A DNA stretch of 32,000 bases from contig NZ_CP017260.1 of the NCBI RefSeq assembly GCF_001735745.1, forward strand, positions 930,001-962,000. The letters run 5' to 3'. Position numbers and translations under genes: made by a program. This DNA comes from Formosa sp. Hel1_33_131. GTDB lineage: Bacteria; Bacteroidota; Bacteroidia; Flavobacteriales; Flavobacteriaceae. Below the pieces are notes generated by a model that had not been told where the DNA came from, searched no databases, and saw nothing but the letters and a program-made list of their open reading frames with translations. Positions 4,660 to 27,161 of this stretch are shown piece by piece (the first letter of the stretch is position 1; each line of letters starts with the position of its first letter).

Positions 4660-4795
4660 AAAATGGAACATCCTCAATACAAGTCAAAAAATCTTTAAGA
4701 AATAACTAAAAGGAGGTAACATACTTGCAGTGAGCCTGCCTACCGCAGTTAGGCGCAGTTGAAATGTGACTGTTAAAATTAATATATATAAACAT

Positions 4796-7634: not shown

Positions 7635-7639
7635 ATTCT

Positions 7640-8406: not shown

Positions 8407-10470
8407 CTATTTTTTGAATAAAGGTTTCTTGAAAAGGTACCATTTAAACCTCAAACCAATTTCCGTAAATTTAAAACCTGCAGCAGACGCAGAAGCTATG
8501 TTACTCTGCAGCCCGTAAATGTTTAGAGCACTTCTTTCCTTAAATTTATATCCTAATTTTCCTTGAATTCTATAGGTACTTTGTTTTTGATCATCTTCTA
8601 TAAATTGATACCCAGTTGCTGCCGTTAATTCATAAAACCATTCATTATTTTTTGCAATATTTTCATCTTTTATTAGATTCACAAAAACTTCAACGGCATT
8701 AAATTTACGAGGACTAAAATAAATGGTAGGCACTGTCTTTTTAAAAGATATATTCTGGTAATTAAATCCTGCTTTTAATGACGGCTTATCTAAAATGCTG
8801 TAGTACAATGATGTAAATAGTAGGTTTCGTGTATTGTCATCATTTTGAAACGTGTAATAATATTGGGTAAACCATCCCAACCTAAAGTTAGTGTTTAAGC
8901 TGTAATTCACTAAAAAATTATTCTGTACAATTTCTCTATCTAACAGCTCCGCATTAAAATTTTGCAATTCTCTTTTATATCCCAATTCTAAATTCTGAAG
9001 TTTAAACGGCTTAATCTTCAAAGAAAAATCGGCTAATAGTTGGCTGTAATTTATTGTTTCTGTGTTTGATGAAGTGATGCCTAAACACCCTTTAAACGTC
9101 AAATTATTTAAGATTTGATAGAATATTCCCGCTAAAAAATTATTAGATTTAGCACTCATATTCGTAACCGAATTAGCGGTTGTTCTGTAATTATAGCTTG
9201 CTAATAGCTTAAGTTTAGTTGTAAAGGAAAATTCAGAATTAGCAGTATAAGAATAGGCTTCATTATTGCCATTATCAAAAGAGTACGAGGCTTTAGTTTC
9301 TATAAAAGGCGTGAAATGTCTATCTAAACTTTTAATGAAATTAGTCGCATCTTTTTGATTCTTATAAAAATTTAAGGTGTTTTTTGCACTCTTATAAGCC
9401 GCATCATAATAGCCAGAAGCTTTAAGTGCATTCGCTTTACCAAGGTTTCCATCAAAAGAAGTACTGTCGTTTTTTAAGATTAAATTATAATCAGAAATAC
9501 TTTTTTTAAAATCGCTTTTGTAAATGTTCAATGTCGCTCTTAACGCTAAAATCCAATTTTCTAAGTTTTTATTTTTCAACACTAAGTCATCAATCTCCTT
9601 TTCTGCCAAGGAATACTTCTTGTTCCAAATCAATGCTTGAATGTATCTTTCTGTCGTTTGGTTTTTTAAAGAAACATCCGTTTGCTCTGTGAGACTGTCA
9701 AACGCCGTTTGACTCACAACTAAAGCGGCTTTGTCATTACTTTTTAAATGTTCGGCGAGTGCAATTCCGTTTAACGATATGAATCGATTTGCGGGCGTGT
9801 CTCCTATAATTTCATAAATCTCTTTTGCCCTATCCATTTGATTTGAGATTAAATACAGATTTGCAAGATTCAATAACGTTTCTTTATCATTTGTAAAGTC
9901 CTCAAAATTTTCTTTCAATAGGGTTTCTGCTTCCAAATAATTTTGAAGCTTCATTTTATCGTTTGCCAATCCTAAACGCATATATTTTTTGGAAATCAAA
10001 GCATTTTTGTTTTTGGGCAACACAATTAGTGCTTTATCAACATAAATAATAGCATTCTCAAACTCTTTAAGATTAGACAACGTATTTGCATACCCTAAAA
10101 GCGCAGGGAAACTTGTGTCGTTTTCTTTTAGTAAATTTTGATAATAGCCTTTTGCGGAAGTATAATCTTTATTCCAAAGCAGCGCTTCTGCATAATTTAA
10201 TTTGACTTCAAAATCTGTTGGAAAATCATCTAAAAGAGCAGTGAATAAACGTACAGCTTTTTTTGAATCGCCATTTAAGCCAATCGCTCTCCCATAACAA
10301 AGACGTGCTGTTTTGTTGCTCGGATAGGTCTGTAATACTGTTTCAAAAAAGGTTTCTGCTAGTTTGAACTTACCGGTTTCTAAATAAGCGAAGCCCGTTT
10401 TCATTTCTTGAGAAACGCCACAAAAACTAATAAAGAAAGCGATTAGTAATGTACTATATTTTAATTTCAT
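8407..10470 (-). CDS. Outer-membrane protein: N-terminal TPR array plus C-terminal beta-barrel (PelB/PgaA/BcsC-like architecture)
   Basis: 687 aa with signal peptide MKLKYSTLLIAFFISFCGVSQE. About 370 aa of TPR-like helical repeats (FAYLETGKFKLAETFFETVLQTYPSN.., AEALLWNKDYTSAKGYYQNLLKEND.., YANTLSNLKEFENAIIYVDKAL..). The last ~290 aa have short alternating-hydrophobic strands rich in Y/N/S/T (ASYSFDNGNNEAYSYTANSEFSF.., LGYKRELQNFNAEL.., FTEIGLRFKWYLF). Confidence 0.7.
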   Translation of the reverse strand: MKLKYSTLLIAFFISFCGVSQEMKTGFAYLETGKFKLAETFFETVLQTYPSNKTARLCYGRAIGLNGDSKKAVRLFTALLDDFPTDFEVKLNYAEALLWNKDYTSAKGYYQNLLKENDTSFPALLGYANTLSNLKEFENAIIYVDKALIVLPKNKNALISKKYMRLGLANDKMKLQNYLEAETLLKENFEDFTNDKETLLNLANLYLISNQMDRAKEIYEIIGDTPANRFISLNGIALAEHLKSNDKAALVVSQTAFDSLTEQTDVSLKNQTTERYIQALIWNKKYSLAEKEIDDLVLKNKNLENWILALRATLNIYKSDFKKSISDYNLILKNDSTSFDGNLGKANALKASGYYDAAYKSAKNTLNFYKNQKDATNFIKSLDRHFTPFIETKASYSFDNGNNEAYSYTANSEFSFTTKLKLLASYNYRTTANSVTNMSAKSNNFLAGIFYQILNNLTFKGCLGITSSNTETINYSQLLADFSLKIKPFKLQNLELGYKRELQNFNAELLDREIVQNNFLVNYSLNTNFRLGWFTQYYYTFQNDDNTRNLLFTSLYYSILDKPSLKAGFNYQNISFKKTVPTIYFSPRKFNAVEVFVNLIKDENIAKNNEWFYELTAATGYQFIEDDQKQSTYRIQGKLGYKFKERSALNIYGLQSNIASASAAGFKFTEIGLRFKWYLFKKPLFKK

Positions 10471-10593
10471 TTGTAATTTTTTATCTACAGTAAGTTAAGC
10501 ATTAGCTATTAATGATTGACCGAAACAAAACGACCTTTCAACGATAATAGAGCTCTATTGGAAGTTATTAAGAAGATATTTACGCCACTATTA

Positions 10594-10902
10594 ATGATGA
10601 ATAAATTAATTATGACGTTACAAATTTTTGAAAAAAATGAGATATTTTATTTAAACGGAAGATTAAACAGGTCAACGTTAAAATCTTTCATCTCTTATTT
10701 TGAATACAATTTATCTCGAAATAAAAATGTAATCATAAATATTGATAACGTCATTGAAATTGATAAAAGTGGTCTAGAAGCCATGCGCAATTTTGCAAAG
10801 GTTGCAATCTTAAAACAAAAAGTATTTTCTATTGTTGGAAATGGTTGTAAAGAAATCTATGACGATTTTAAACAAACCAACCTTGCAGAATTAGCGCGTT
10901 GA
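10594..10902 (+). CDS. STAS-domain protein (anti-sigma-factor-antagonist/SpoIIAA-like)
   Basis: The track ORF starts at TTG 10516. I prefer ATG 10594 (MMNKLIMTLQIFEKNEIFYLNGRL..) or ATG 10612. The STAS pattern is VIINIDNVIEIDKSGLEAMRNF, with the DxSG Ser in the position phosphorylated in SpoIIAA. The MOP transporter gene starts 11 nt downstream. Confidence 0.6.
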   Translation: MMNKLIMTLQIFEKNEIFYLNGRLNRSTLKSFISYFEYNLSRNKNVIINIDNVIEIDKSGLEAMRNFAKVAILKQKVFSIVGNGCKEIYDDFKQTNLAELAR

Positions 10903-10913
10903 AAATCTAAATT

Positions 10914-12188
10914 ATGATTGCAAAACCCATCCCCTTTAAAGATAAATTCTCTACGGAGCAACTATTTATGATGAGTGCAATGCTTGTCAATGGGGGTAAT
11001 TATTTATATAATTTAGTGTTAGGCAGATTTCTAGGTCCCGAGAAATTTGCAGATGCGGCAATTCTAATCACCTTACTATTAGTGTTGTCTTTTGCTGCAA
11101 TGACATTTCAATTGGTCACTGCAAAATTTTCAGTGATTTTTGAGAATTCAGTGCTTCAATCGTTTATAGCAACTATTTACAAAAGTGCTACTGTTGTTGG
11201 CGTTGTTTTAGGAATCACAATTGTTTTGGTATCCTCAGAGTTACAAGAATTTTTCAAAACAACATCATCTAGTATGTTTGTTGTTTTTGGAATTGGCATT
11301 CCTTTTTACTTCTTAATGAGTGTGAATCGGGGCGTTTTTCAAGGTCAAAAAGAATGGATTCCTTTATCTGCGACCTATCAATTAGAAATGATGAGTCGGT
11401 TAGCAATTACTTTTGGATTGCTATGCCTTTTTGAAGTGGATTCGTCACTATTAATTGCCATTGGAATTATATGCTCATTTATCGTTGGTCTACTTCCATT
11501 TGAGTTTAACCCCCCCCCCTTTTTTAATCGTATCAAATTAAAGAAATCAGAAACCAAAATGGTACGTAATTTTTTTATAATTACGGCGTTTTATGAGGTC
11601 ACACTTATTGTCATTAACAACAGTGACATCTTATTAGTGAAACATTATTTCGAACCTTATGAAGCAGGCTTATATGCATCCTTAGCATTGATTGGTAGAG
11701 TCGTGTATTTTATAGCTTGGATGTTTGTCATGTTGTTATTACCAACCGTCGTGCAACTAAAAAAACAGGGCATATCTACAAGACCTATTTTATTTAAATA
11801 CGTTATTTATATTATTATAATTGCAGCCTCTATTGTTTTAGCGTGCTACTTGTTTCCGAATCAAATTATCAATATCTTATTTGGAAACGAGTATGTAGGG
11901 ATTGCTTCTTTATTGTGGAAGTATGCTTTCGCAACAGGTGTTTTTGCGGTCTCAAATATTTTCGCCTACTATTATTTATCTCTAGACAAGTATATTCCCG
12001 TAATCTTTTCGGGGGTTTTTGGTGTGTTACAGATAGCTTTAATCATACAATTTCATGCGTCTTTAGAGCAAATTGTTCATCTTCAAATTTTTGCGATGAT
12101 TTTACTGTTAGGAGTACAGATAACCTTCTTTATTTTAAACGATATGATCTCTAAAAATAAGAGCCTGAAGAATCTTTCTCACCATTAA
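10914..12188 (+). CDS. MOP-superfamily polysaccharide transporter / flippase-like membrane protein (Wzx/PelG-like)
   Basis: 424 aa and highly hydrophobic, about 12 predicted TM segments in two halves. The N-terminal block FMMSAMLVNGGNYLYNLVLGRFLGPEKFADAAIL is typical of polysaccharide-biosynthesis (PST/Wzx) proteins. Confidence 0.75.
   Translation: MIAKPIPFKDKFSTEQLFMMSAMLVNGGNYLYNLVLGRFLGPEKFADAAILITLLLVLSFAAMTFQLVTAKFSVIFENSVLQSFIATIYKSATVVGVVLGITIVLVSSELQEFFKTTSSSMFVVFGIGIPFYFLMSVNRGVFQGQKEWIPLSATYQLEMMSRLAITFGLLCLFEVDSSLLIAIGIICSFIVGLLPFEFNPPPFFNRIKLKKSETKMVRNFFIITAFYEVTLIVINNSDILLVKHYFEPYEAGLYASLALIGRVVYFIAWMFVMLLLPTVVQLKKQGISTRPILFKYVIYIIIIAASIVLACYLFPNQIINILFGNEYVGIASLLWKYAFATGVFAVSNIFAYYYLSLDKYIPVIFSGVFGVLQIALIIQFHASLEQIVHLQIFAMILLLGVQITFFILNDMISKNKSLKNLSHH
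11510..11525 (+). repeat. Homopolymeric C10 followed by T6 inside the MOP transporter CDS (candidate slipped-strand phase-variation tract)
   Basis: Read directly as aaC CCC CCC CCC TTT TTT, encoding N-P-P-P-F-F. It is by far the longest G/C run I found by eye in the window; the next longest were C6 runs. Confidence 0.9.
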
Positions 12189-12208
12189 GCAATAGAGACA
12201 CATGAATC

Positions 12209-12227
12209 ATCTATAACTAAATCTCGA
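12209..12227 (+). promoter_or_regulatory. Conserved 19-nt element, copy 1 (atcTATAACTAAATCTCga), 12 nt upstream of the GT-B gene start
   Basis: 17/19 identity with 19413..19431, including a 12-nt perfect core ATAACTAAATCT. Function unknown. Confidence 0.3.
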
Positions 12228-12238
12228 CACCAAAAAAA

Positions 12239-13426
12239 ATGAAACTAGCAATCGTCACTGCATATCCCCCAAGTAAAGTCACATTAAACGAATATGCATT
12301 TCATTTAGTAAAAAGCTTTAGACAAAACAAAAAAGTAACTGAATTAATTTTACTAACCGATGAAACTCCAGGGAAAAAAGAAATTTATTTCACAGAAGAT
12401 GGATGTGAAGTTACGGTAAAAGAGTGTTGGAAATTTAATAGCTATTCGATTGTTTATAATGTGGCCAAAGCCATCCATAACACAAAACCAGACGCCGTAT
12501 TATTTAACTTACAATTCATGAAGTTCGGCGATAAAAAAATTGCAGCAGCACTAGGCTTAACCCTCCCTTTAATTTGTAGAATAAAACACGTTCCAACAAT
12601 CGTATTACTTCACAATATTTTAGAACAAACAGACTTAGAAAATGCTGGTTTTGCCTCAAACAAACTTTTGCAAATAGTCTATACGTTTATAGGAACGTGT
12701 TTAACAAAACTAATTTTAAAAGCCGATCTCGTTGTGGTTACTATGGAGAAGTACGCGGCCAATTTAAAAGAAAAATATAAAGTAACTAATGTAAAAATGA
12801 TCCCTCATGGTACCTTTGAAACTCCAAGGAAACCATCACATAAACTTCAAAATGGCACTCTAAAAGTAATGACTTTTGGGAAATTCGGAACCTACAAAAA
12901 AGTGGAATCACTGATTGAAGCTGTGGAAAAGGTTAGAGACTATTCTGGATTGGATTTAGAAGTTGTAATTGCGGGTACAGACAACCCAAATGTGGTGGGC
13001 TATTTGGCTAACGTAAAAGAAAAATACAAACATATCTCTCAAATCACTTTTACGGGCTATGTGGAGGAAAACCAAGTAGAAAGATTATTTAATGAAAGTG
13101 CAGTCGTAGTGTTTCCCTATACCTCTACCTCCGGAAGTTCGGGTGTTTTACACCAAGCTGGAAGTTATGGCAAAGCTGTAATCATGCCCAATTTGGGTGA
13201 TTTAGCAACTCTAATCGAAGAGGAGGGTTACAGAGGTGAATTTTTTAAACCAGAAAGTGTAGATAGTTTAGCAACTGCAATTGAAACCGTTGTAACAAAT
13301 GATGCGTACAGAGTCGCGTTGGGGAATGCAAACTACAAGGCCGCTACGGCGTTTCCAATGGAAAGAATTACGAATCTTTATATAAATGAATTTCAAACTA
13401 TCATCGATGAAAAACACATTTCATAA
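12239..13426 (+). CDS. GT-B fold glycosyltransferase (group 1 / GT4-like, PelF-like position)
   Basis: 395 aa, soluble. The N-terminus MKLAIVTAYPPSK.. and overall layout are typical of group-1 transferases. The C-terminal donor-binding region is VVVFPYTSTSGSSGVLHQAGSYGKAVIMPNLGDLATLIEEEG. The usual E-x7-E acidic pair appears replaced (S..Q), so the family assignment is approximate. Confidence 0.7.
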   Translation: MKLAIVTAYPPSKVTLNEYAFHLVKSFRQNKKVTELILLTDETPGKKEIYFTEDGCEVTVKECWKFNSYSIVYNVAKAIHNTKPDAVLFNLQFMKFGDKKIAAALGLTLPLICRIKHVPTIVLLHNILEQTDLENAGFASNKLLQIVYTFIGTCLTKLILKADLVVVTMEKYAANLKEKYKVTNVKMIPHGTFETPRKPSHKLQNGTLKVMTFGKFGTYKKVESLIEAVEKVRDYSGLDLEVVIAGTDNPNVVGYLANVKEKYKHISQITFTGYVEENQVERLFNESAVVVFPYTSTSGSSGVLHQAGSYGKAVIMPNLGDLATLIEEEGYRGEFFKPESVDSLATAIETVVTNDAYRVALGNANYKAATAFPMERITNLYINEFQTIIDEKHIS

Positions 13427-13434
13427 CCCTTCCT

Positions 13435-14949
13435 TTATTTAGAAATATACTCGAAAGCAGGTTTTTTAACTCCTTTGCTATTGATAAACCCAAACTCTTT
13501 TTGGGGGTTGACTCGCCACGGGAGCACCCCAACAACTTCTTTTGGGATTGTATCAAAATCATACAAGGTCCAAGACATAAAAGAGAGGTTCTTTTTTGTA
13601 AGGATTTTTTGCATTTCTTTATAATAGCCTGCTTGAATTTTTTCAGAATTACCGAAAGGTTTCCATGCACCGCTATAAGAAGAAACCCCAAACTCCCCTA
13701 AAACAATAGGTTTGTTGGGAATTAATTTTTTTAAAAATTCGTATTTTTCTTCAAACTCATGGACATCCTCATAATAATGAAAGGACACAAAATCTAAGTT
13801 ATCTTTTAAAATTTCTGCACTCTTAATATTAGACCACCCAATTGTAACTGCATGGTTTTTATCAATAGATTTTATAAGAATAATAAGATGTTCTAACCAA
13901 GAAATAACCAGTTCCTTCCCTCTAGACTCAAAGTCTAAATTGGGTTCGTTTTTAACGTCCCAAGCGAGGATGGCCTTGTGATCTTTAAATTTGGATACAA
14001 TAATTTCTGCGTGTCTGTGATTTAAAGTCCAATCTAAAACATCATAATCTCCATAAAAATCAAACAAGGTGACGACAACTTTTAAGTTGCTTTTTTCAGC
14101 AGCATCTAAGACTTGTTTTAGTTTGTTCAACTTTGGCTCTTTGACCTTCGCTTTTCCAAAATCTTTATAAGGAACAAAGATTCTAATCGTGTTTAGGCCC
14201 GCTTTCATAATAATTTCAAAATCTTTCTCGATGATAGTAAGATCGAAATTTTCACCAAACATATCCCAAGGAGTGGCTTGTGGATAGTAATTAATCCCTT
14301 TAATGTTCGAGGAACCTAAAAGAGATGGAAGAGTCGTTTTATCAAATTCCGAGGTACGTTCTTTTACCAAATGTCTGATCCGCCAAAAACCGTCCTCTAA
14401 CAAAAAGAGGCCTTTATAGTCAGATGTTTCTGTAGTTTCAATGACGAATGCATTGTCTTTAATAAACTTCTTGTATTCAATAACATTTTTGTCTTCCAAA
14501 ACAAGCAACTGTCCATCTTCACTAAAAAATAATATATCTGGATTGTGTGCTAAGGTGGTACTCTCTATCGCTATGTTTTCCTCTTTATTATGTTCTATAA
14601 AATTGAATAGATTTTTTCTAGCACTTTTGGTATAAAAATCATCAATCCCATTTTTTAAATTGGTTTTGTTGGCAATATGTTTTACATACCATGCATCTAA
14701 ATAATCATTTTCAATGCTGCTTAATGTTTGTGGATCCATATATCGACCTTCATTACCGTCATCTTTCCAACTGATTTTTGGTGTATATTGATCTATTTTT
14801 TTTACTTCTGTATGCAACATTGAACTTCGATCTGCACCCGTATTAAAGTAACTAAACAGAGAGCTTATTAAGAAAATTAATATAGAAATTATCACAAGAT
14901 ATGAGATAATTAACACACTTCTCAAAATAATTTTGTTTGTATTTACCAT
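13435..14949 (-). CDS. Membrane-anchored glycoside hydrolase, GH5-like (clan GH-A TIM barrel)
   Basis: 504 aa with an N-terminal TM anchor (SVLIISYLVIISILIFLISSLF) and a ~190-aa linker domain. The GH-A signature residues follow in order: GLNTIRIFV (Arg), ILAWDVKNEPN (acid/base NEP), VSFHYYED (His-x-Tyr), PIVLGEFGVSS (nucleophile Glu) and MSWTLYDF (Trp). The start overlaps the stop of the upstream gene (ATGGTAA). Confidence 0.75.
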   Translation of the reverse strand: MVNTNKIILRSVLIISYLVIISILIFLISSLFSYFNTGADRSSMLHTEVKKIDQYTPKISWKDDGNEGRYMDPQTLSSIENDYLDAWYVKHIANKTNLKNGIDDFYTKSARKNLFNFIEHNKEENIAIESTTLAHNPDILFFSEDGQLLVLEDKNVIEYKKFIKDNAFVIETTETSDYKGLFLLEDGFWRIRHLVKERTSEFDKTTLPSLLGSSNIKGINYYPQATPWDMFGENFDLTIIEKDFEIIMKAGLNTIRIFVPYKDFGKAKVKEPKLNKLKQVLDAAEKSNLKVVVTLFDFYGDYDVLDWTLNHRHAEIIVSKFKDHKAILAWDVKNEPNLDFESRGKELVISWLEHLIILIKSIDKNHAVTIGWSNIKSAEILKDNLDFVSFHYYEDVHEFEEKYEFLKKLIPNKPIVLGEFGVSSYSGAWKPFGNSEKIQAGYYKEMQKILTKKNLSFMSWTLYDFDTIPKEVVGVLPWRVNPQKEFGFINSKGVKKPAFEYISK

Positions 14950-16142
14950 AGTTTTTTAGTTTTAAATGTTTGTGTAATTCCTGCCGCTGTAACTTCTAAA
15001 TTGTAGTTGCCATTTTCATAAATATTAGGGTCTAAATCAAAAGTTACAAACCCATCATTTGTCGTTTTAAAAATGTTATTTACAAACGCCCCTTCTTTAT
15101 AGATTGATAACGTAACGCGCAGGCCGTCAGGAATCCTTTGATTCATAAAACTTTTTAAGGGACCTACCTTTAGTACTCTATTTGTGTCTGAAAAATGCAC
15201 GTCAAATGTTTCGATTACTTTTGTGTAACTAATTTCCAGGGGATTGCTTTCAGAGATGCCCGCTATATAGGCTTTGATTCTCCAATTTTCTTGATGATCT
15301 GGGTGAATCATTTTTGCGTTTGCAATACCGTTTATGGTAGTTCCAGATGTTTTTAGAATATTTCCTTTTTTGTTTGTGATAAAAAAGGTGACAAAAGTCC
15401 CATCGCTTACAATATTATTATTCTTGTCTTTTATAATTGAGGTAGTAAACGTTGTGATTTGATTTCCATCTGCATACGCGTGGTTACGTTTTGAAAAAAT
15501 ATCAAAATTTGTGCCAATTGCGGGCATTATATTTACGTCGTATTCTTTTGAATTTAATCCTAAAGATTCCGCAGAAAGGATCATTCTTCCACTTTTTAGG
15601 GGAGAAAAAATAGTTTGGTATGCTATTAAATTGTTGGTAAAAATGTTGGTTTCTTTTTCTGATGTCATAAATTGATGTTTGATACCAACTTTTGTGTATT
15701 GTTTTAGAGGGTTGTCAAAATCATCTGTAGGAATCACAACGAGCATCGTAAAATCGGTTCCACCAGCTTCAATACTCGGAGGCCCAATATAGGATTCTAA
15801 TAAAACTGGTTTCGCTTTGGGTACAATTTTAAATTTACCAGAAATTGATTCTTTTAAACCTACAATTTTCCACCCCACAACACCTGTTTTATCACTAATA
15901 TATTTTGGAATTTTGAAAACTAACGTGTCCTTATTAATTTCAGAATTAAGCAATGTACTTCCATAGCTATTTGTACAATACAATTGATACTTTCTAGCAT
16001 TGCGAGTCTTAAATTCCAACAGGATTGTACTTCCAGCCACAAATTGTTTTTCTTGAGTTAAAAGTGCCAACGCATTTTGAGCGTTCATAGAATGCATTGC
16101 TAACAAGTAAATAAGAAGAAAAAAGTTGTTTTTTATATTCAT
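14943..16142 (-). CDS. Secreted/periplasmic protein with bacterial Ig-like (Big_1-type) repeats
   Basis: 399 aa with signal peptide MNIKNNFFLLIYLLAMHSMNAQNA. The Ig-like repeat pattern is ADGNQITTFTTSIIKDKNNNIVSDGTFVTFFITNKKGNIL..TINGIANAKM. Sandwiched by overlapping stop/start codons between the 1029-aa membrane protein and the GH5-like gene. Confidence 0.6.
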   Translation of the reverse strand: MNIKNNFFLLIYLLAMHSMNAQNALALLTQEKQFVAGSTILLEFKTRNARKYQLYCTNSYGSTLLNSEINKDTLVFKIPKYISDKTGVVGWKIVGLKESISGKFKIVPKAKPVLLESYIGPPSIEAGGTDFTMLVVIPTDDFDNPLKQYTKVGIKHQFMTSEKETNIFTNNLIAYQTIFSPLKSGRMILSAESLGLNSKEYDVNIMPAIGTNFDIFSKRNHAYADGNQITTFTTSIIKDKNNNIVSDGTFVTFFITNKKGNILKTSGTTINGIANAKMIHPDHQENWRIKAYIAGISESNPLEISYTKVIETFDVHFSDTNRVLKVGPLKSFMNQRIPDGLRVTLSIYKEGAFVNNIFKTTNDGFVTFDLDPNIYENGNYNLEVTAAGITQTFKTKKLW

Positions 16143-19100
16143 TATTTTGGGTTTCCTATATAACTATTCATTTCAATTTTTACAAAAGAATAAAGTGGGT
16201 GCGCTATTTTCTGTAATTCAGTATTTGTGTGATTTGCTATTCTGTTAGGGACTATTTTATTAGAAATAGCGGCATTTGGCAACCCATTCACATAACAATT
16301 ACTCATGTCTTCATTTACAATCGTGAGTTGTTTATGAGTTGTGAAATTATATTCAAAATAGTGTTTGCGCTGTTGTCTTATTCCGTGTTCTAAAAACAGA
16401 TGGTCCACCCAAACCATTTTTTTGTTTTGGTCATAATAAGTAATCAGTAATTGTGGAACTGTAATTTCGTGTAAGCCACTATTAAAAAGCGTTCCTTTAA
16501 TCGTTTCAGGATGGACTTTAACATCACTTAAAACACTGTATTTATATAAATCAGAATTGGACACATTCCCTGCGGCTTGTAAATTAAATTTAGTGGGGTG
16601 TTCTTCAAATTCTACAGGCGTGAATTCTTCAGGGTTGAATGTTTTAGGGATAGAATCTTTTGTTTTGGACCATGCAATTCCTTCAAAATTAATTCTAAAA
16701 GAGCTGACTTCTTTAGGCATTAATTTATGTTTTACATGAAACTTGGCATTATAGGTTGCTAACTCTTTGTTTTGGTCATTGTAAAGGGTCCCTTTTAGAA
16801 CAACATCTGCTGGTACATTGTCTATGTTTTGCACCTCCCCAATAATGGCATAATGGGAATTAAACTTTACTAGTTTTGCTGAAATAATCTCTAATACGGG
16901 TTGCTTCAAAACATCTTCGTGATGTGTTTGTTCTGTGGTAATTCTTCTTCTTCCTTGATTAAAATAACCTGTTACATTATGAGAATACAATTGATCTGGT
17001 GGTAAATCAGAATCGACCTTGTCTAGTTTTAAAAACCATTTACGGTTTCTCTTTACAATAGTTTTAAAATCGGTTTTACTAATTTTCTCCAAAGGAGTAA
17101 TCCAATTTGTATGCACTTTTAAAGTCACTAAACTATCCGTTTCTGTAATGGTTTCTGTGCGAATGGCATCTAACTTTGCATACGAGCTCAACAAGCCATC
17201 CGTCACAGAAACTTCGAGCATAAATTGAGAAATAGAGATCTTACTTTCCGGGTCTATGAATTGATAGCTTTTTTCAAATTCATTGAAATCCAACGCATCA
17301 TAATACGCCGTTACGAGGTTTTCTGGCGAAATTTGAGATTCATTTTTGACATAAAACATATACAACCAAAACCCTAAAGTGACTCCTAGAATTACAACCC
17401 AAATATGAAGCGATTTTAAAACGCCGCTTGAGAATTGGGTGTGCGTATATTTATTATTTAAATAGGCGGGGATTATCTCTGGTTTATTTTTTAACCTCCT
17501 AAAAAAAAGACTTTGAATATTTATTATAATCGCAAAAATAACGGTTAGAAAAGGAATAATGCCCCACACTATTTTTTGCCAAGTAGCGACATCCTCTTTT
17601 GGTAAGATTGAAGAAAGAGGAGCAACGTTTAATTTTTCCCAAACCATAATTCCGTTTTCTAAATGTGATAAACGTTGCCATCCGCAGAAGTATAAAATAG
17701 GATCGTAAAATTTATCATTAGAAAATATATACTTTAAATTGTATTTTTCTGGAGTCGTTAAAAACTGTTGTAAAGAACCAATCCCTGCAACCCCTTTAAA
17801 TTTTGAGTTTTCTAAACGTTCAATAGGCCGTGTCGTTAGTTCAGGCAAACGTCTTGCAGAATGGTAATTCCCATCAACAGTCATCGCATTTGTTTTGGCG
17901 GCCAACCACGCCATTTGATCTCCAAAACCTAATGTTAAATACCGCCATTGATCATGCTGGTCTTGGTTTAGAAAATTAACAATGGGTAACATTTTAATCT
18001 TTTGGGGTTGAGCGGGTCGAAAACGCTGTAAGTTTGTAGTAAAAATGGTTATTGATAAAAATAAACCTACCAATATCCCCCCAATTAAACGATGATAAAG
18101 TATTCCGAATTTTTGTTGAATTAGTTGTTTTAAATCGCCTTCTACAAAACGGTATGCTAGCTCCCCAAACAGTGGCAAAGACATAATAGAAGCCCAAAGT
18201 GAAAACCGATCTAAAGTGAGTATACTAAATGCATTTTCGCCTAAAATAATCTTTGGAATTGGGGTGGTTCCTCCAGTTCCTAAAATTAATAACAATGTAA
18301 AAGAAAGTCCGAAAAACAAATAACGTTTGCTGAAATATCTGTAAAAAAAATACGGCATGAGAAATAATAAGACCCCCCAAGGAATCAAAAAGAATACAAA
18401 TCCAGAAGATGTGATTTCTAAAAAATTATCTCGGGAACCATGAGGTATAGGAACTTGTGTGATTGGATTGTTTTTAGAATTTATCCAATACGGCAAGATG
18501 CAGCCAATAATTACAACTAATGAAAGCATCCCAAAAGTTAGGTTTCTTTTAAACTGTGTTCTGAAGTTTTTTATAAATAATTTAAACGTGATTTCTTTGT
18601 TTGAGTTTACTTCTTCTCTAGAAATATCTAAGATCACCATCCCTATTATTGGAAAAATAAAGAAGATCATTCCAAAAATTGGAGTCACATGATGGGAGGT
18701 CACCGTGACCGCAATTAATGAAAGGGAGGTCAATAAATACCTATATTTTCCAGTTTTAAGCCATGAATAAGTTTCAGGCAATGCATGCATTAAAACAGCG
18801 ATTCCTATAATGCTTGGCAGTTGCCCAAAAACATGAAGGGTTTCTACAAATGATGATGAAAAAACAGCTAAAAGAGCGGCATAGCTAGCAACAGTTTTGT
18901 TGGAACTCATCAACAAAGAAAAACGATATACACCCGTTATAAATAAAATGACACTAAGTATAGAAACCGTGAAAAGTCCAAATTTTAATCCCCCAATCAA
19001 AGAGAATGCGGCCATAGATTGGTGAACTAAAGGTGGATAACTCATCACCGAAAAACCTGTGTACCATTTAAAATTCCAAGGCTCAAACCAATTATTGGCA

Positions 19101-19231
19101 TAATGTTCTGCAAAAAACAAATGTATGAGCGCATCATAAGTCGTCTCTAAAGTAAGAAACATAGCACCCCCATGAAAAGCAATCCCTAAAAGTATCGCTA
19201 AAATTAAATATTTATGAGAAGTCTTTTTCAT
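16142..19231 (-). CDS. Large polytopic membrane protein with GT-C-like architecture and a large extracytoplasmic C-terminal region; function unknown
   Basis: 1029 aa. About 12-13 TM segments lie in the first ~400 aa, with an Asp-containing first loop (LETTYDALIHLFFAEHYANNWFEPW). A soluble segment follows (QWRYLTLGFGDQMAWLAAKTNAMTVDGNYH..), then two more TM segments (VWGIIPFLTVIFAIIINI; LHIWVVILGVTLGFWLYMFYV). The ~400-aa C-terminus has an NTF2-like stretch (ENLVTAYYDALDFNEFEKSY..) and two similar beta-rich modules (VLKGTLYNDQNKELATYN.. / TIKGTLFNSGLHEITVPQLLITYYDQNKK..). The CDS is solid. The GT-C assignment is architectural only. Confidence 0.65.
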   Translation of the reverse strand: MKKTSHKYLILAILLGIAFHGGAMFLTLETTYDALIHLFFAEHYANNWFEPWNFKWYTGFSVMSYPPLVHQSMAAFSLIGGLKFGLFTVSILSVILFITGVYRFSLLMSSNKTVASYAALLAVFSSSFVETLHVFGQLPSIIGIAVLMHALPETYSWLKTGKYRYLLTSLSLIAVTVTSHHVTPIFGMIFFIFPIIGMVILDISREEVNSNKEITFKLFIKNFRTQFKRNLTFGMLSLVVIIGCILPYWINSKNNPITQVPIPHGSRDNFLEITSSGFVFFLIPWGVLLFLMPYFFYRYFSKRYLFFGLSFTLLLILGTGGTTPIPKIILGENAFSILTLDRFSLWASIMSLPLFGELAYRFVEGDLKQLIQQKFGILYHRLIGGILVGLFLSITIFTTNLQRFRPAQPQKIKMLPIVNFLNQDQHDQWRYLTLGFGDQMAWLAAKTNAMTVDGNYHSARRLPELTTRPIERLENSKFKGVAGIGSLQQFLTTPEKYNLKYIFSNDKFYDPILYFCGWQRLSHLENGIMVWEKLNVAPLSSILPKEDVATWQKIVWGIIPFLTVIFAIIINIQSLFFRRLKNKPEIIPAYLNNKYTHTQFSSGVLKSLHIWVVILGVTLGFWLYMFYVKNESQISPENLVTAYYDALDFNEFEKSYQFIDPESKISISQFMLEVSVTDGLLSSYAKLDAIRTETITETDSLVTLKVHTNWITPLEKISKTDFKTIVKRNRKWFLKLDKVDSDLPPDQLYSHNVTGYFNQGRRRITTEQTHHEDVLKQPVLEIISAKLVKFNSHYAIIGEVQNIDNVPADVVLKGTLYNDQNKELATYNAKFHVKHKLMPKEVSSFRINFEGIAWSKTKDSIPKTFNPEEFTPVEFEEHPTKFNLQAAGNVSNSDLYKYSVLSDVKVHPETIKGTLFNSGLHEITVPQLLITYYDQNKKMVWVDHLFLEHGIRQQRKHYFEYNFTTHKQLTIVNEDMSNCYVNGLPNAAISNKIVPNRIANHTNTELQKIAHPLYSFVKIEMNSYIGNPK

Positions 19232-19412
19232 ATTTATGGAGGGCTCATTTTCATTATTGTAAATGTAAATCTTAAAAATGTCTCCTGAAATTTTTTCAAC
19301 TTAGGCAAACTTCCATTCGCCTAAACAAAAGCTACTTTAGAACTTTACGACCCCTATTTATTAGGAAACAAAACTACTTTTGAAGTCATTTAAGTAATGA
19401 TAATTATGAAAG

Positions 19413-19431
19413 ATCCATAACTAAATCTTGA
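19413..19431 (+). promoter_or_regulatory. Conserved 19-nt element, copy 2 (atcCATAACTAAATCTTga), in the leader region of the REC-GT2 gene
   Basis: 17/19 identity with 12209..12227. It lies 64 nt upstream of ATG 19495 and downstream of a TAnnTTTG-type -7 box candidate (TACTTTTG, 19375-19382). Confidence 0.3.
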
Positions 19432-19494
19432 TTCCTAATGGAATGATCAAATGGATGTAACATGTAATCATTAAAAATCAATAAAAAATAACAC

Positions 19495-20703
19495 ATGAAA
19501 GTACTAGCGATTGATGACCAAAAATTAGTTCTGATTCCTTTAGAAAATAGACTGAAGGAGTTAGGCTATGAAGTACGTACTGCAACAAACGCTTTAGATG
19601 CGATAGATCTATATGACTCTTTTCATCCAGATTTAATCATTGTGGATATTAACATTCCATTTATGTCAGGTATGGAAGTGGTGAAATATATTCGTAAGAC
19701 AAAAAATTCATCTACACCAATTATGATTTTATCAGGCAATACAGAGGATGCTATCATCCTAGAAGGTTTTGATCTCGGCATCAATGACTATATGAAAAAG
19801 CCCCTAAGCTTAATTGAAGTTTGTGCAAGAGTGAAAAAATTAATTGGAGCTCCTAAAACTAATAATAAAACGATCCTAAATAAAGGGATCATCATTCAAC
19901 AACGCTGTGTTGGGGTGGTCATCCCTTGTTATAATGAAGAAAAAAGATTGATACATAAAGAATTTACAGATTTCATTGATAAAAATTCAGGATATTATTT
20001 GTGTTTTGTAAATGATGGCAGTACCGATAACACACTAGAAATTTTAAACGGTTTAAGAAACGAAAGGGAAGACTTTATTACGGTCTTTAATTGCAAAAAA
20101 AACGTTGGTAAAGCCGAAGCTGTAAGACAAGGAATGCTGTTGATGTCTAAAAAAGAAGATTTAGATTATATCGGCTTTTTAGATGCCGATTTATCTACAG
20201 ACCTAACCGATTTTGACGATTTAGTGTCAACTATAGAAAATTCTGAATACATGATCGTAAGTGGCTCTAGAATAAGCAGAATGGGAGCAAACATTACCAA
20301 AAGATCTGTTAGGTCTGTAATAAGCTTGGCCATAAACTTTATGATCAGAAAAATTCTTTCTATGGATTTTCAAGACACCCAGTGTGGCGCAAAAATCTTT
20401 CATAAAGAAGTCATTGGAATTTCATTCGATAAAAAATTTGTAACTAAATGGATTTTTGACGTTGAAATATTTAGAAGAATCACTTTACATTTTGGCTTAA
20501 AAAAAACAAAAAAAATACTTTGTGAGCAACCCCTAAAACGATGGATTCATGTGGATAACTCAAGGTTGTCAATGAAAGATTCTATCAAAATTGTGGGGCA
20601 ATTGGGACAAATTGCTTGGTCTTATAGACGCAAAAACAAAACACTGTCAAAACTAAGAGATCTTCATAAGAATAAGCCCGTTTCTATCTCAGAAATACAA
20701 TAA
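19495..20703 (+). CDS. Response-regulator receiver domain fused to a family-2 glycosyltransferase (polyprenyl-phosphate sugar transferase-like, DPM1/ALG5/GtrB type)
   Basis: 402 aa. The REC domain has all catalytic residues: AIDDQ, LIIVDINIPFMSG, IMILSG, DYMKKPL. The GT2 domain has VGVVIPCYNEE, CFVNDGSTDNT, NVGKAEAV, the DxD motif as FLDADLS, and QDTQCGAKIF (compare the DTQCGFK motif of dolichyl/undecaprenyl-phosphate glucosyltransferases). Confidence 0.85.
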   Translation: MKVLAIDDQKLVLIPLENRLKELGYEVRTATNALDAIDLYDSFHPDLIIVDINIPFMSGMEVVKYIRKTKNSSTPIMILSGNTEDAIILEGFDLGINDYMKKPLSLIEVCARVKKLIGAPKTNNKTILNKGIIIQQRCVGVVIPCYNEEKRLIHKEFTDFIDKNSGYYLCFVNDGSTDNTLEILNGLRNEREDFITVFNCKKNVGKAEAVRQGMLLMSKKEDLDYIGFLDADLSTDLTDFDDLVSTIENSEYMIVSGSRISRMGANITKRSVRSVISLAINFMIRKILSMDFQDTQCGAKIFHKEVIGISFDKKFVTKWIFDVEIFRRITLHFGLKKTKKILCEQPLKRWIHVDNSRLSMKDSIKIVGQLGQIAWSYRRKNKTLSKLRDLHKNKPVSISEIQ

Positions 20704-20705
20704 AA

Positions 20706-21137
20706 ATGAGCATGAAAAAAGGAATCATAATCGTATTTTCTAACAATGAAAAAGAGATTAAAGAAACCCAATTTGATAAGCTTTTAGATAAAGATGTTGC
20801 GGAATTTTGTTTTGTGAATAACGCAAGTAATGATCATACTTTAGACAAACTAAAAGACATTAAAACTAAAACCTTTAACAATATATCTATTGTAGATGTA
20901 AAAAAAAATAAAGGCACAAAAGCAGCTATTAAAGCAGGCGTCAGGTATCTGGTTAATAATAAAGAGTTGAAGTTAATTATCTATTTAGTGTTTTATAAAA
21001 ATACTGACTTTTTAAATTTAGAATATACGCTCAATATTATGATGAATAGAAATAAAAAAATAATCAACCTAAACACAAACAATCGAAATATTTTACAAAA
21101 TGTGTTTTCACTAGAACAGCTCATTAAAAAAATATAA
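20706..21137 (+). CDS. Truncated, degenerate GT2-like protein (N-terminal half-domain paralog of the preceding GT2)
   Basis: 143 aa. By-eye alignment to REC-GT2 residues ~140-215: GIIIVFSNNEKEI / GVVIPCYNEEKRL; CFVNNASNDHTLDKL / CFVNDGSTDNTLEIL; KKNKGTKAAIKAGVRYL / KKNVGKAEAVRQGMLLM. The nucleotide-binding Asp is changed (VNDGSTD to VNNASND), and the DxD and acceptor half are absent. Starts 2 nt after the REC-GT2 stop. Confidence 0.55.
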   Translation: MSMKKGIIIVFSNNEKEIKETQFDKLLDKDVAEFCFVNNASNDHTLDKLKDIKTKTFNNISIVDVKKNKGTKAAIKAGVRYLVNNKELKLIIYLVFYKNTDFLNLEYTLNIMMNRNKKIINLNTNNRNILQNVFSLEQLIKKI

Positions 21138-21630: not shown

Positions 21631-21675
21631 AAAAAAATAATCTTAATAAAGATAAAAAGGTCTTTATATCTGTAT

Positions 21676-27160: not shown

Positions 27161-27161
27161 A

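Follow-up and report, generated by a model that had tools for sequence, protein, structure and literature searches.

Several described systems bear on the locus reported here. Modules in which a GT2 glycosyltransferase, a flippase and a GT-C glycosyltransferase decorate a molecule include ArnC/ArnT, GtrB/GtrC and GacI/K/L, the last of which uses a flippase of the Wzx type; ArnC and GtrB are polyprenyl-phosphate sugar synthases. Mycobacterial lipoglycans are built by a pathway that follows a PimA/Ppm1/EmbC logic. On the regulatory side, the syp exopolysaccharide (EPS) locus of Vibrio fischeri is controlled by a nitric oxide (NO)-sensing H-NOX phosphorelay at two levels, through a DNA-binding response regulator and through a post-transcriptional arm of receiver and STAS, and so offers a precedent for joint control of such a locus by NO/H-NOX, STAS and a receiver domain, or REC (PMC12369376). 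Direct action of a STAS domain on a glycosyltransferase also has a precedent (bioRxiv 10.64898/2026.04.08.717354).

Formosa sp. Hel1_33_131 has a genuine, uncharacterized surface-polysaccharide locus of nine genes that is kept across marine Flavobacteriaceae. At its center are a large membrane glycosyltransferase of the GT-C type and an outer-membrane porin of the cellulose/PNAG/Pel type, and the locus occupies positions 8407-21137 of the 32,000-nucleotide stretch of DNA that we analyzed (the window). An earlier note, made from the letters alone, had read these genes as a hybrid in which a Pel-like polymerization and export set is joined to a GtrB/GT-C-like periplasmic glycosylation set. All nine open reading frames were found again at the same coordinates, and Pfam profile searches mostly upheld the domain calls. 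The hybrid interpretation as a whole is partly supported: its TPR porin, GT-C protein, REC-GT2, GH5 hydrolase and gene co-occurrence all stand, its PelG/PelF-like pair does not and the division into two sets is weakened. The note had also called the system c-di-GMP-free and could not place it among described systems. Both remarks have held up, since no window ORF of at least 80 aa carries a Wza/Wzc, Wzy_C, Bac_transf, PilZ, GGDEF or EAL domain (the export, polymerase and initiating enzymes had also been reported as not seen), a search of the window for riboswitches was empty, and our literature search found no published description of the locus.

The same genes in the same order recur in about 160 independent loci, which takes the arrangement far beyond chance, and the core is also found in distant lineages. 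Across the 110 loci with enough flanking sequence, the Ig-like and GH5 genes are always present (100% each), followed by GT2 (97%), GT4 (94%), the PST flippase (92%) and the porin (at least 85%); a truncated second GT2 is present in at least 43% of loci. The 1029-residue GT-C protein (hereafter the giant), the Ig-like protein and GH5 are never missing and are the most strongly conserved of all. Their genes are also physically interlocked: the stop and start of giant and Ig-like genes share nucleotide 16142, and the Ig-like and GH5 genes overlap at 14943-14949.

Proteins of the locus

The porin (8407..10470, minus strand) is a 687-residue protein with a signal peptide, about 10 TPR repeats (residues 22-385) and a 16-stranded beta-barrel (389-678). 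Pfam TPR matches run across residues ~20-250, and the AlphaFold2 model (pLDDT 88.7) places 21 helices ahead of the 16 strands. Foldseek searches with this model returned BcsC (9b8a, 3.5e-13; also 6tzk), the barrel of PgaA (4y25, TMt 0.81, rmsd 3.7) and PelBC (9h80, 1.9e-8) as the best structural matches, which supports the predicted assignment to the BcsC/PgaA/PelB class.

The giant (16142..19231, minus) is a polytopic protein with no Pfam match of its own. A transmembrane core (1-400) is followed by a periplasmic alpha/beta domain (400-550), further transmembrane segments (550-577 and 602-630) and a periplasmic C terminus (636-1024) of NTF2-like and beta-sandwich domains. Its model (pLDDT 90.7, pTM 0.90) supports a GT-C fold through Foldseek matches to AglB (3wak, 3.5e-7), STT3 (8agb, 4e-7), PglB (6gxc, 1.3e-5), DPY19 (7zlg) and ArnT (5ezm), all with probability 1.0 and a TM score of ~0.3, values that do not convincingly separate oligosaccharyltransferases from ArnT and DPY19. 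A homologue, P0310, matches Pfam PMT_2 above cut-off and provides a transitive link to the giant. Two residues of the first loop on the periplasmic side stand out, H37 as invariant and D33 as nearly so. Between genera the protein has a median identity of 74%, and certain homologues carry a fused Wzy_C polymerase/ligase domain.

Translationally coupled to the giant on one side and to GH5 on the other is a secreted, periplasmic Ig-like protein of Big_1/Invasin_D3 character (14943..16142, minus; Invasin_D3 1.2e-6, below cut-off). It has no sequence relatives in the PDB and occurs in the distant lineages as well. GH5 itself (13435..14949, minus) is a GH5-like periplasmic hydrolase of clan GH-A (Pfam Cellulase 2.7e-14) held by an N-terminal membrane anchor at residues 11-29; both catalytic glutamate motifs, NEP and GEFG, are present, and the PDB matches, to GH5 mannanases, are weak.

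On the plus strand, a receiver (residues 1-120) is fused to a GT2 domain of the ArnC/GtrB class (130-402) in a protein encoded at 19495..20703 (Response_reg 1e-24, Glycos_transf_2 1.2e-20). The receiver is intact, with all phospho-acceptor residues in place (D7, D8, D51, S80 and K102). Searched alone against the PDB, the GT2 domain matched only ArnC (7.5e-6) and GtrB sll0501 (1.7e-4) by sequence; its NCBIfam matches are ArnC, PpgS, PgfS and AglJ. It is without transmembrane helices, whereas ArnC and GtrB have them at the C terminus. Immediately downstream lies the truncated GT2 (20706..21137, plus; 143 aa), which aligns to positions 2-76 only of the Glycos_transf_2 profile. Having lost the DxD motif and the entire C-terminal half, DTQCGAK included, it is to judge by its alignment a catalytically dead remnant, conserved as a companion of REC-GT2.

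The remaining three genes lie beside the porin, also on the plus strand. The first encodes a small STAS-like protein (10612..10902, 96 aa) whose STAS match is weak and below the Pfam cut-off (E 7.7e-4, 19.6 bits against 22.6). The earlier note had started this frame at 10516, which is probably too far upstream, since the orthologues are 92 aa long and public gene calls give 96. The second (10914..12188, 424 aa, ~12 hydrophobic segments) is a polytopic transporter from the MOP superfamily and belongs with the oligosaccharide flippases of Wzx/PST type. Its own sequence has no Pfam match; among 28 orthologues, 12 match PF13440/PF01943, one matches MurJ and none matches PelG. The third (12239..13426) is a cytoplasmic GT4 enzyme of the GT-B fold (Glycos_transf_1 1.7e-18) from an atypical subfamily in which the EX7E motif is missing and an invariant FPYTSTTGSSGVLHQ (TGSSGVLHQ) stands in its place, even in distant lineages. 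Such a protein may lack catalytic activity or have a different target. Between them, transporter and GT4 leave the supposed PelG/PelF-like pair without support.

A phosphorelay next door

The upstream flank of the locus holds an H-NOX/kinase/Hpt/LytTR phosphorelay (4246-8344) and the downstream flank a nitrosative-stress island; the earlier note had overlooked both. A stand-alone REC protein (4246..4659; Response_reg 1.6e-21), probably the first phosphorelay step, opens the set, all of it on the plus strand, and in other loci keeps company with genes for H-NOX, Hpt and LytTR. The heme NO/O2 sensor H-NOX follows (4766..5335; HNOB 3.2e-38), with its true start likely the ATG at ~4796 (MKGIVFTEF...); the translation shows YKSGR as its YxSxR motif and a proximal region rich in His. 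The H-NOX stop is overlapped by the start of a cytoplasmic PAS-PAS histidine kinase (5335..7314; PAS_9, PAS, HisKA, HATPase_c). An Hpt phosphotransfer protein (7317..7634; 2.3e-4, below cut-off), whose orthologues travel with LytTR beside the cluster, and a DNA-binding REC-LytTR response regulator (7640..8344; LytTR 1.1e-21, Response_reg 1e-17; BtsR/LytR-like by NCBIfam) complete the relay, the regulator being a candidate for its transcriptional arm.

The cluster has relay genes as neighbors in 18 of 169 loci (~11%), in at least five arrangements, and such genes also lie next to a giant of 41% identity. REC is carried by 134 of 159 cluster GT2s, and in distant lineages it is a separate gene of the same operon. 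Two of the H-NOX-adjacent loci (L152 and L156) have a GT2 without REC, so the H-NOX link cannot pass through a fused receiver there. For Formosa sp. Hel1_33_131, the REC signal probably originates in the neighboring relay. The locus appears to be switched by phosphorylation, not by c-di-GMP, and here the switch probably responds to NO.

Between the giant and REC-GT2 operons lies a divergent control region (19232..19494) with sequence blocks conserved across genera: CAAAAGTA in 60 of 143 loci, a box of the TGTAGACGAATGG type in 56 of the 143, some 90 nt ahead of the giant's start codon, and a TAnnTTTAC box near -30. In the window, TAGGCGAATGG stands at 19313-19323 on the minus strand as a copy of such a block, and a direct repeat spans 19328-19342 and 19370-19384.

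STAS genes lie within the same cluster in distant lineages, and distant relatives of the cluster hold a full STAS/SpoIIE/RsbW-like/STAS/REC set inside the operon. The phospho-Ser position of the window's protein is not conserved among its orthologues, and no kinase or phosphatase gene lies near it.

One pathway or two

We put the odds at roughly one in two that the nine genes form a single lipid-linked pathway. At the cytoplasmic face, GT2 would place a sugar on polyprenyl (undecaprenyl) phosphate; GT4 would probably extend this lipid-linked sugar or else make a lipid-linked acceptor; and the Wzx-type PST protein would flip the glycan to the periplasmic side. There, we infer, the giant and its Ig-like partner would transfer sugar units and probably polymerize them, with the giant's C-terminal beta-sandwich domains perhaps holding the growing chain. 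GH5 would trim or release chains from its membrane anchor, and the polymer would leave through the porin. Phosphorylation of the GT2-fused receiver would gate flux at the first committed step. The phosphate would most likely come from the adjacent H-NOX/kinase/REC/Hpt relay, which would also feed the LytTR regulator, itself a possible controller of operon transcription. For the STAS protein and the dead half-GT2, a regulatory role without catalysis is likely. Of all this, the analysis shows the folds, the domain classes, the catalytic motifs, the conserved synteny and the repeated presence of the H-NOX relay next door; donor and acceptor identity, a polymerizing role for the GT-C, the path of the phosphate and the response to NO are inferred.

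Gene arrangement is what favors one pathway over two sets. REC-GT2, PST and GT4 share a single operon in two loci, L131 and L136; three others (L129, L130 and L133) have all three genes duplicated in one block; and in distant lineages (L082, L171 and L170) GT4-PST-GT2 is one operon upstream of the giant, with Ig-like protein and GH5. Where GT2 normally stands, Spirosoma has an initiating enzyme of the Bac_transf type plus additional glycosyltransferases, a replacement which suggests that the GT-C enzyme draws on a lipid-linked donor. Several things count against the single pathway. GT-C enzymes of the giant's structural class (ArnT, PMT, OST) are often single-transfer enzymes rather than polymerases; the GT2 has none of the C-terminal membrane helices of ArnC and GtrB, and the GT4, with no EX7E motif, may be inactive or serve another target; PST flippases normally carry diphosphate-linked repeat units, and the window has no initiating phosphoglycosyltransferase; H-NOX adjacency is limited to about a tenth of loci, with REC-less GT2s in two of them; and GT4, a MOP-like protein and a TPR porin together make the Pel pattern too.

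This last point leads to the hybrid reading, which we regard as possible, at perhaps half the strength of the single pathway. GT4 and the MOP protein, regulated by STAS, would polymerize in the cytoplasm in the manner of PelF/PelG and feed the porin, while REC-GT2 and the giant, like GtrB/GtrC or GacI/GacL, would add only periplasmic decorations to the polymer. The STAS, MOP and GT4 genes do form their own operon beside the porin gene, the porin's relatives PelB, BcsC and PgaA serve processive synthases, a GT2/flippase/GT-C triad is a known decoration module, and single transfer is common in the giant's fold class. However, the MOP protein belongs to the Wzx/PST family, GT4 lacks EX7E, equivalents of PelD, PelE, PelA and PelC are missing from the window, and GT2 keeps company with PST and GT4 in operon and duplication alike. 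In L087 and L137, moreover, GT2 stands with giant-Ig-GH5-porin and no GT4 or MOP gene is nearby (none within 10 kb in L087), and it would be odd for the best-conserved, invariable proteins to serve decoration only.

Unlikely, in our view, is a lipoglycan route like that of mycobacterial PIM/LM/LAM, in which GT4 glycosylates a membrane lipid, PST flips it, the giant elongates it from the polyprenyl-phosphate-sugar made by GT2, and the porin helps a lipid-anchored glycan to the surface. GT4/GT-C adjacency lasts even in minimal homologues (L086 and L089), and a polyprenyl-phosphate-sugar-class GT2, a GT4 and a GT-C with a C-terminal periplasmic beta-sandwich match the PimA/Ppm1/EmbC scheme, but TPR porins like this one are known from systems with free polymers rather than lipid-anchored glycans, the window has no Lpt/Lol-like lipid-transport component, and the giant has no detected sequence similarity to Emb, Aft or PimE. 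Least probable of all is that the giant acts as an oligosaccharyltransferase, moving a glycan that GT2 and GT4 assemble on a lipid and that PST flips, as in archaeal Agl, onto periplasmic or surface proteins or LPS, with porin and GH5 unrelated or accessory: its top structural matches, the AglJ-like GT2, a gene set that parallels AglJ, further GTs, AglR and AglB, and the Spirosoma replacement all fit, but it has no WWDxG-type motif, the Foldseek scores fall short of singling out such enzymes, and tight, near-universal linkage to a polysaccharide porin and a glycoside hydrolase is unlike protein-glycosylation loci.

Likeness to known systems

With the synthase-dependent EPS systems (BcsC, PgaA, PelB, AlgK/AlgE), the locus shares its outer-membrane architecture of periplasmic TPRs and 16-strand barrel, and a dedicated periplasmic glycoside hydrolase (compare BcsZ, PgaB, PelA and AlgL). 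It differs at the inner membrane, where GT-C, Wzx-type flippase and soluble GT2 and GT4 stand in place of a membrane-embedded synthase of BcsA/PgaC/Alg8 type, and it has no c-di-GMP receptor of the PilZ, PelD or PgaCD type. Pel itself (PelA-G, Pseudomonas aeruginosa) likewise joins a GT4 to a polytopic, MOP-like protein and a porin with TPRs, but in the Formosa locus the transporter is PST/Wzx rather than PelG, EX7E is missing from GT4, and there is no PelC, PelD, PelE or PelA-type hydrolase/deacetylase; the GT-C, Ig-like protein and REC-GT2 have no counterpart in Pel.

The polyprenyl-phosphate-sugar triads (ArnC-ArnE/F-ArnT, GtrB-GtrA-GtrC, GacI-GacK-GacL and CsbB-GtcA-YfhO) share with the locus a GT-C-fold partner with a conserved Asp in the first outer loop, and GT2 is closest to ArnC/GtrB. 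Those triads decorate molecules made elsewhere, whereas this one is firmly tied to porin, hydrolase, Ig-like and GT4 genes; its GT-C, with additional domains in the periplasm, is double the usual size, and its GT2 carries a receiver and is free of membrane helices. Archaeal N-glycosylation (AglJ, further GTs, AglR, AglB) offers a similar order of events, a DPM1-like GT2 starting on a monophosphate carrier, then soluble GTs, a PST-type flippase and a GT-C, and AglB is the giant's top structural match; the lack of a WWDxG motif in the giant and its bacterial setting of outer-membrane export set the two apart.

As for control, the cyanobacterial STAS-glycosyltransferases All4160 and XssP, which are governed by partner switching, also tie STAS to a polysaccharide glycosyltransferase (bioRxiv 10.64898/2026.04.08.717354), but in the window STAS is a separate protein without switch enzymes, and the sensor fused to a glycosyltransferase is a receiver. 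The Syp machinery resembles Wzx/Wzy systems, exports in the Wza/Wzz manner and has SypG (sigma-54) and SypE as regulators, and in these respects the locus differs from it, as it does in fusing its receiver straight to a glycosyltransferase, in its LytTR-type DNA-binding regulator, and in a STAS protein lacking both conserved phospho-Ser and neighboring switch enzymes. With its cast of HnoX-HahK, SypF, SypG, SypE and SypA, syp is nonetheless the closest regulatory analogue of the Formosa locus.

Make-up and conservation of the cluster

The cluster lies in DNA of low G+C content (about 33%), and every one of its key proteins is annotated as hypothetical. All nine ORFs proposed in the earlier note were found at its coordinates, and most of its domain calls were borne out by Pfam and NCBIfam. 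Three of the genes follow one another on the minus strand: a 1029-residue polytopic protein that we call the giant (16142–19231), an Ig-repeat protein (14943–16142) and a GH5-like hydrolase (13435–14949), with overlaps of 1 nt at the giant/Ig junction and 7 nt at the Ig/GH5 junction. The same strand carries a 687-residue TPR protein, the porin (8407–10470). On the plus strand are a small STAS protein, a 424-residue flippase-like transporter (10914–12188), a GT4 glycosyltransferase (12239–13426), a receiver fused to a GT2 glycosyltransferase (REC-GT2, 19495–20703) and a 143-residue half-GT2 (20706–21137). The STAS ORF, which ends at 10902, is present on the expected strand and was right in all but its start; 92-residue orthologues and public gene calls place this most likely at 10612 (96 residues), not at 10516. 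Wza/Wzc, Wzy_C, Bac_transf, PilZ and GGDEF, already listed as not seen in the earlier note, are absent, as is EAL, from window ORFs of at least 80 residues, and a permissive Rfam scan of the cluster found no riboswitch.

Scanning one genome per species uncovered 302 stretches that encode a relative, the best 80 of which all belong to Flavobacteriaceae; a metagenome scan uncovered more than 582. Gene presence was counted over the 110 loci with enough flank. The Ig and GH5 genes occur in 100% of them, the GT2 in 97%, the GT4 in 94%, the flippase in 92%, the porin in at least 85%, the STAS gene in at least 55% and the half-GT2 in 43%. The co-occurrence in other genomes that the earlier note had predicted is clear from 89 loci that hold all six of TPR, PST, GT4, GH5, Ig and GT2. 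That the genes are merely neighbors is ruled out by synteny over about 160 loci and by lineages at 28–46% identity. Many marine metagenome contigs encode the window proteins at 100% identity (69 index blocks, contigs up to 473 kb). The closest named relatives, in Polaribacter and Tenacibaculum, are 72–80% identical for the giant, porin and flippase, and the median identity is about 74% for the giant across genera and 71% for REC-GT2. The locus is one of the best-conserved envelope gene clusters of marine Flavobacteriaceae. The marine members of this family, among them Polaribacter, Tenacibaculum, Winogradskyella, Kordia and Dokdonia, have a key part in colonizing algae, particles and fish, and to our knowledge very little is known of how they build a matrix and regulate it.

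The layout varies. REC-GT2, flippase and GT4 share one operon in two loci (L131 and L136). Three metagenome loci (L129, L130 and L133) carry two copies of this trio, about 53–64% identical to the window proteins, together with one giant–Ig–GH5 set, which is the pattern expected of one GT-C enzyme supplied with two different lipid-linked donors. In L087, the GT2 and giant–Ig–GH5–porin genes stand alone. In Spirosoma, a Bac_transf initiating enzyme takes the place of the GT2 and is accompanied by extra GT4s and an acetyltransferase. The orders in distant lineages are GT4–PST–GT2–STAS–SpoIIE–RsbW-like–STAS–REC–...–giant–Ig–GH5 (L082 and L171) and giant–Ig–GH5–GT2–GT4–...–STAS (L170), and a minimal pair of a GT4 and a short GT-C was also seen. 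Just before the giant, L082 and L171 encode an endonuclease/exonuclease/phosphatase-family protein or an acyltransferase–beta-lactamase fusion.

Proteins of the cluster

The giant has no Pfam match even at E = 10, and a PDB sequence-profile search of its family gave nothing useful, so that it was resolved only by structure prediction. An exhaustive search among 1.84 billion representatives returned 940 clusters for the family. Many of these homologues are about 560 residues long and align to residues 1–570 only, and one (P0310, E 1e-88 to the giant) scores 34.4 bits with Pfam PMT_2, above the cut-off of 26.1, and also matches PTPS_related. The model built on 64 diverse homologues is of very high confidence (pLDDT 90.7, pTM 0.90). 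Because its membrane part matches AglB, STT3, PglB, DPY19 and ArnT in Foldseek, each with a probability of 1.00, the giant has, by this model, a GT-C fold. Outside the GT-C core, the model shows an alpha/beta domain in the periplasm, another two TM helices and a C terminus of NTF2-like and beta-sandwich folds. The catalytic acid of GT-C enzymes sits after TM1, in the first extracytoplasmic loop. There the family carries the motif TYDAxxHxFFAxHY, in which H37 is invariant among the 64 homologues and D33 conserved to at least 90%, and D33, at the position of the catalytic acid, is a candidate catalytic residue. No WWDxG or WWD motif occurs in the 1029 residues; the giant is thus not a canonical oligosaccharyltransferase. 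Its donor we infer to be polyprenyl-phosphate-linked, solely from the adjacent GT2 of the ArnC/GtrB class. The giant and its relatives define a new GT-C family of about 940 clusters at 50% identity, without a Pfam model. In some distant homologues, the GT-C part is fused to Wzy_C (O-antigen ligase/polymerase) in place of the soluble C terminus, as in P0348 and P0362; the P0362 gene (L089, 6477–9947) follows a GT4, a B12-radical-SAM enzyme and methyltransferases.

In the GH5 protein, one N-terminal TM segment precedes a domain that scores 53.7 bits as Cellulase (PF00150), for which the cut-off is 23.5. The protein retains the catalytic motifs NEP for the acid/base and GEFG for the nucleophile, and it resembles GH5 mannanases weakly. 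The Ig protein is Invasin_D3/Big_1-like; a PDB profile search of its family gave nothing useful.

REC-GT2 (402 residues) begins with a receiver that has D7, D8, D51, S80 and K102 in place and scores 87 bits as Response_reg against a cut-off of 30. Its GT2 domain carries the motifs DADLS (DxD) and DTQCGAK. Searched alone against PDB sequences, this domain matched ArnC and GtrB and nothing else, and its NCBIfam matches (ArnC, PpgS, PgfS and AglJ) are all under the equivalog cut-offs. Its sequence assigns it to the polyprenyl-phosphate sugar synthase class of ArnC, GtrB and DPM1, at the level of class. C-terminal TM helices like those of ArnC and GtrB were not found, as no hydrophobic segment of REC-GT2 reaches the threshold. 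A fused receiver is present in 134 of the cluster GT2s and absent from 23; in distant lineages, the receiver has a gene of its own within the operon of the GT2. The two forms together give a Rosetta-stone argument for the GT2 as the target of the phospho-signal. The half-GT2 matches the first half of the GT2 profile only, and alignment shows it to have lost its DxD motif along with the entire C-terminal half. With orthologues in L002–L073, it is a pseudoenzyme that has been conserved. In sequence it is nearer to a REC-less GT2 of 275 residues that about 15% of loci encode, the GT2 domain of REC-GT2 being more distant. The half-GT2 may be what is left of an ancestral GT2 after its displacement by the copy with the fused receiver.

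The transporter has about 12 hydrophobic segments and matches no family profile even at E = 10, and a PDB profile search of its family found no matches. Among 28 orthologues, 12 match PF13440/PF01943, some of them at 87–90% identity, one matches MurJ and none PelG; the close orthologues with PF13440/PF01943 are named oligosaccharide flippases. The GT4 has a Glycos_transf_1-type domain in which all orthologues, the most distant relatives included, replace the EX7E motif with TGSSGVLHQ. The replacing segment, FPYTSTTGSSGVLHQAG at residues ~293–310, is almost invariant from Flavobacteriaceae to lineages whose giant is about 40% identical (L082, L170, L171 and L088), and on this evidence the GT4 seems to represent a separate subfamily of GT4 enzymes, one whose chemistry is unusual or whose role is non-catalytic. 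The STAS protein scores 19.6 bits against a curated cut-off of 22.6; the residue after its conserved Asp varies among orthologues (K, R, T, I or A), with no conserved phosphorylatable Ser. A second small STAS gene, its product ending in ...IVAA, lies just downstream of the half-GT2 in L007, L015, L017, L030, L039 and L047 (~5500–6000; Winogradskyella and relatives), so these loci have a STAS gene at both the GT2 and the flippase/GT4 operons.

The N-terminal third of the porin carries TPR repeats (Pfam TPR_19, 3.7e-21, and other TPR families). That the C-terminal part of 8407–10470 might be no beta-barrel was one of the grounds on which the earlier note would have been refuted, and it did not hold. 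An AlphaFold2 model from 50 homologues (pLDDT 88.7) has 21 helices at residues 22–385 and a barrel of 16 beta-strands at 389–678. Foldseek against the PDB puts Escherichia coli BcsC first (9b8a, 3.5e-13) and also finds the PgaA barrel (4y25, TM 0.81 on target, rmsd 3.7 Å), PelBC (9h80) and BcsC with its terminal TPR (6tzk). No barrel family of Pfam matched, and the TIGR03939 PgaA model gave 31 bits over the TPR part only, well under the cut-off of 366 for that family. On the strength of the model, the porin belongs by structure to the BcsC/PgaA/PelB class.

Regulatory surroundings

Both flanks hold genes that the earlier note overlooked. Directly upstream, on the plus strand at 4246–8344, is an H-NOX relay made up of a stand-alone receiver, an H-NOX heme sensor of NO (HNOB 3e-38, with YxSxR), a PAS-PAS histidine kinase, an Hpt protein and a REC-LytTR regulator. 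The run of genes that adjoins the cluster downstream, on the plus strand at 21196–28572, encodes an Rrf2-family regulator (NsrR/IscR-like), a divergent cbb3-like heme-copper oxidase pair far under the CcoN/CcoO cut-offs (250 bits against 583), a truncated globin, a tryptophan-2,3-dioxygenase-like protein, a 2Fe-2S ferredoxin, an Fe-S assembly protein and a RIC/YtfE di-iron Fe-S repair protein above its equivalog cut-off. The oxidase pair is possibly an enzyme of the NO-reductase type, and together these genes look like a nitrosative-stress set. Such genes lie beside the cluster in none of the best 80 of the 302 genome loci.

In 18 of 169 loci, the cluster has H-NOX relay genes next to it, and at least five arrangements occur: beside the porin, beside the GH5 gene, beside REC-GT2 in two orientations, and beside a 41%-identical giant (L081). 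Other relatives adjoin hybrid PAS-kinase-REC-Hpt proteins or GAF kinases. The adjacency is not universal, yet it is recurrent and rearranged, which argues for functional coupling. In two of the H-NOX-adjacent loci the GT2 has no receiver, from which it follows that the LytTR arm must play a part too. The phosphotransfer route and a response to NO are both putative.

The intergenic stretch from which the giant and REC-GT2 diverge (19232–19494), compared over about 143 loci, keeps blocks of sequence across genera. One, CAAAAGTA, is present in 60 of 143 loci. Another, TGTAGACGAATGGTAG, a box of the TGTAGACGAATGG type, is present in 56 of 143 and lies about 90 nt upstream of the giant's ATG, and a TAnnTTTAC box lies near −30. 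The window has a copy, TAGGCGAATGG, at 19313–19323 on the minus strand and a 15-nt direct repeat (19328–19342 and 19370–19384). They probably represent the binding site of a regulator and a promoter of the Bacteroidota type. A LytTR-type operator shared by the window's intergenic regions was sought and rejected: the conserved box TAGRCGAATGG occurs exactly once in the whole window, and 13 near-matches against 9.75 expected are what chance would give. Unrelated to the cluster are three minus-strand features, a TonB-dependent receptor with CarboxypepD_reg (1047–3908), an M28 peptidase (30240–31595) and a tRNA gene (28633–28714); the peptidase has a T9SS C-terminal sorting domain, which marks the organism as a member of the Bacteroidota.

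Possible pathways and known systems

The reading with the best support, at a probability of about one half, is a single lipid-linked pathway. The GT2 would charge polyprenyl phosphate, the GT4 would extend the lipid-linked sugar or prime an acceptor, and the PST protein would flip the lipid-linked sugar. In the periplasm, the GT-C enzyme and its Ig partner would transfer or polymerize, the GH5 enzyme would trim and the modeled TPR barrel would export the polymer. Phosphorylation of the receiver would gate the first step, that of the GT2, and the LytTR regulator would form a transcriptional arm. Folds, motifs and synteny are observed here, and the donor, the acceptor, a polymerase activity, the route of phosphotransfer and an NO response are proposed.

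The earlier note had preferred a Pel-like polymerase joined to a GtrB/GT-C-like decoration set, which now seems doubtful. The porin does belong to the structural class that includes PelB, and the pairing of a GT4 with a membrane transporter is real. That this pair is PelG/PelF-like found no support: 12 of 28 orthologues of the transporter match PST families, while PelG is matched neither by the window protein nor by any of the 28, and PelF has the canonical EX7E motif, whereas the cluster GT4 has TGSSGVLHQ there. Window ORFs contain no domains of the PelD c-di-GMP receptor, PelE, PelC or a PelA-type hydrolase/deacetylase; the hydrolase here is a GH5 enzyme. A lipoglycan route like that to PIM and LAM is unlikely. 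Least probable is transfer to proteins or LPS by an oligosaccharyltransferase-like giant; the giant shares the fold of PglB, AglB and STT3 and lacks their WWDxG motif.

The single lipid-linked pathway may also be a route to exopolysaccharide that has not been described, an idea we put forward tentatively. A dedicated periplasmic GT-C polymerase would use polyprenyl-phosphate sugars and deliver to a porin of the BcsC/PgaA/PelB type, its flux switched by direct phosphorylation of the priming glycosyltransferase, here and in relatives through an NO-sensing H-NOX relay. If true, exopolysaccharide synthesis would gain a further, GT-C-dependent branch beside its known routes. No earlier case is known to us in which the receiver of a response regulator directly gates a polyprenyl-phosphate glycosyltransferase, and this would be the first. 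Little c-di-GMP signaling is known from marine Flavobacteriaceae, and NO is a signal exchanged with algae and animal hosts. The new route would link NO to matrix production without c-di-GMP and give these bacteria a phosphorylation-based matrix switch.

The earlier note did not recognize the gene combination as a described system, and the literature we searched, with most subscription journals outside its scope, agrees: it holds no description of the cluster, of REC-GT2 fusions, of flavobacterial H-NOX or of a Bacteroidota GT-C oligosaccharyltransferase. Nor does the searchable literature, within the same scope, combine a GT-C-centered inner-membrane machine with a synthase-type porin and a receiver-fused priming GT2. 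A Sphingomonas exopolysaccharide paper was discarded as a precedent; the locus there is an ordinary Wzx/Wzy one.

Known systems do resemble the cluster in its parts. Its GT2/flippase/GT-C triad would work like ArnC/ArnT, GtrB/GtrC and GacI/K/L, and its gene logic mirrors the archaeal Agl pathway. STAS partner switching calls for a phospho-Ser and a kinase and phosphatase; the window has no SpoIIE or RsbW-like gene, whereas the distant loci L082 (4742–8611) and L171 (4637–9944) carry a full set (STAS, SpoIIE phosphatase, RsbW-like kinase and second STAS) with a stand-alone receiver. For a STAS protein acting directly on a glycosyltransferase, there is a cyanobacterial precedent (bioRxiv 10.64898/2026.04.08.717354). 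The closest regulatory logic is that of syp in Vibrio fischeri, which combines an H-NOX relay with a response regulator that binds DNA, a receiver that acts post-transcriptionally and a STAS protein (PMC12369376).
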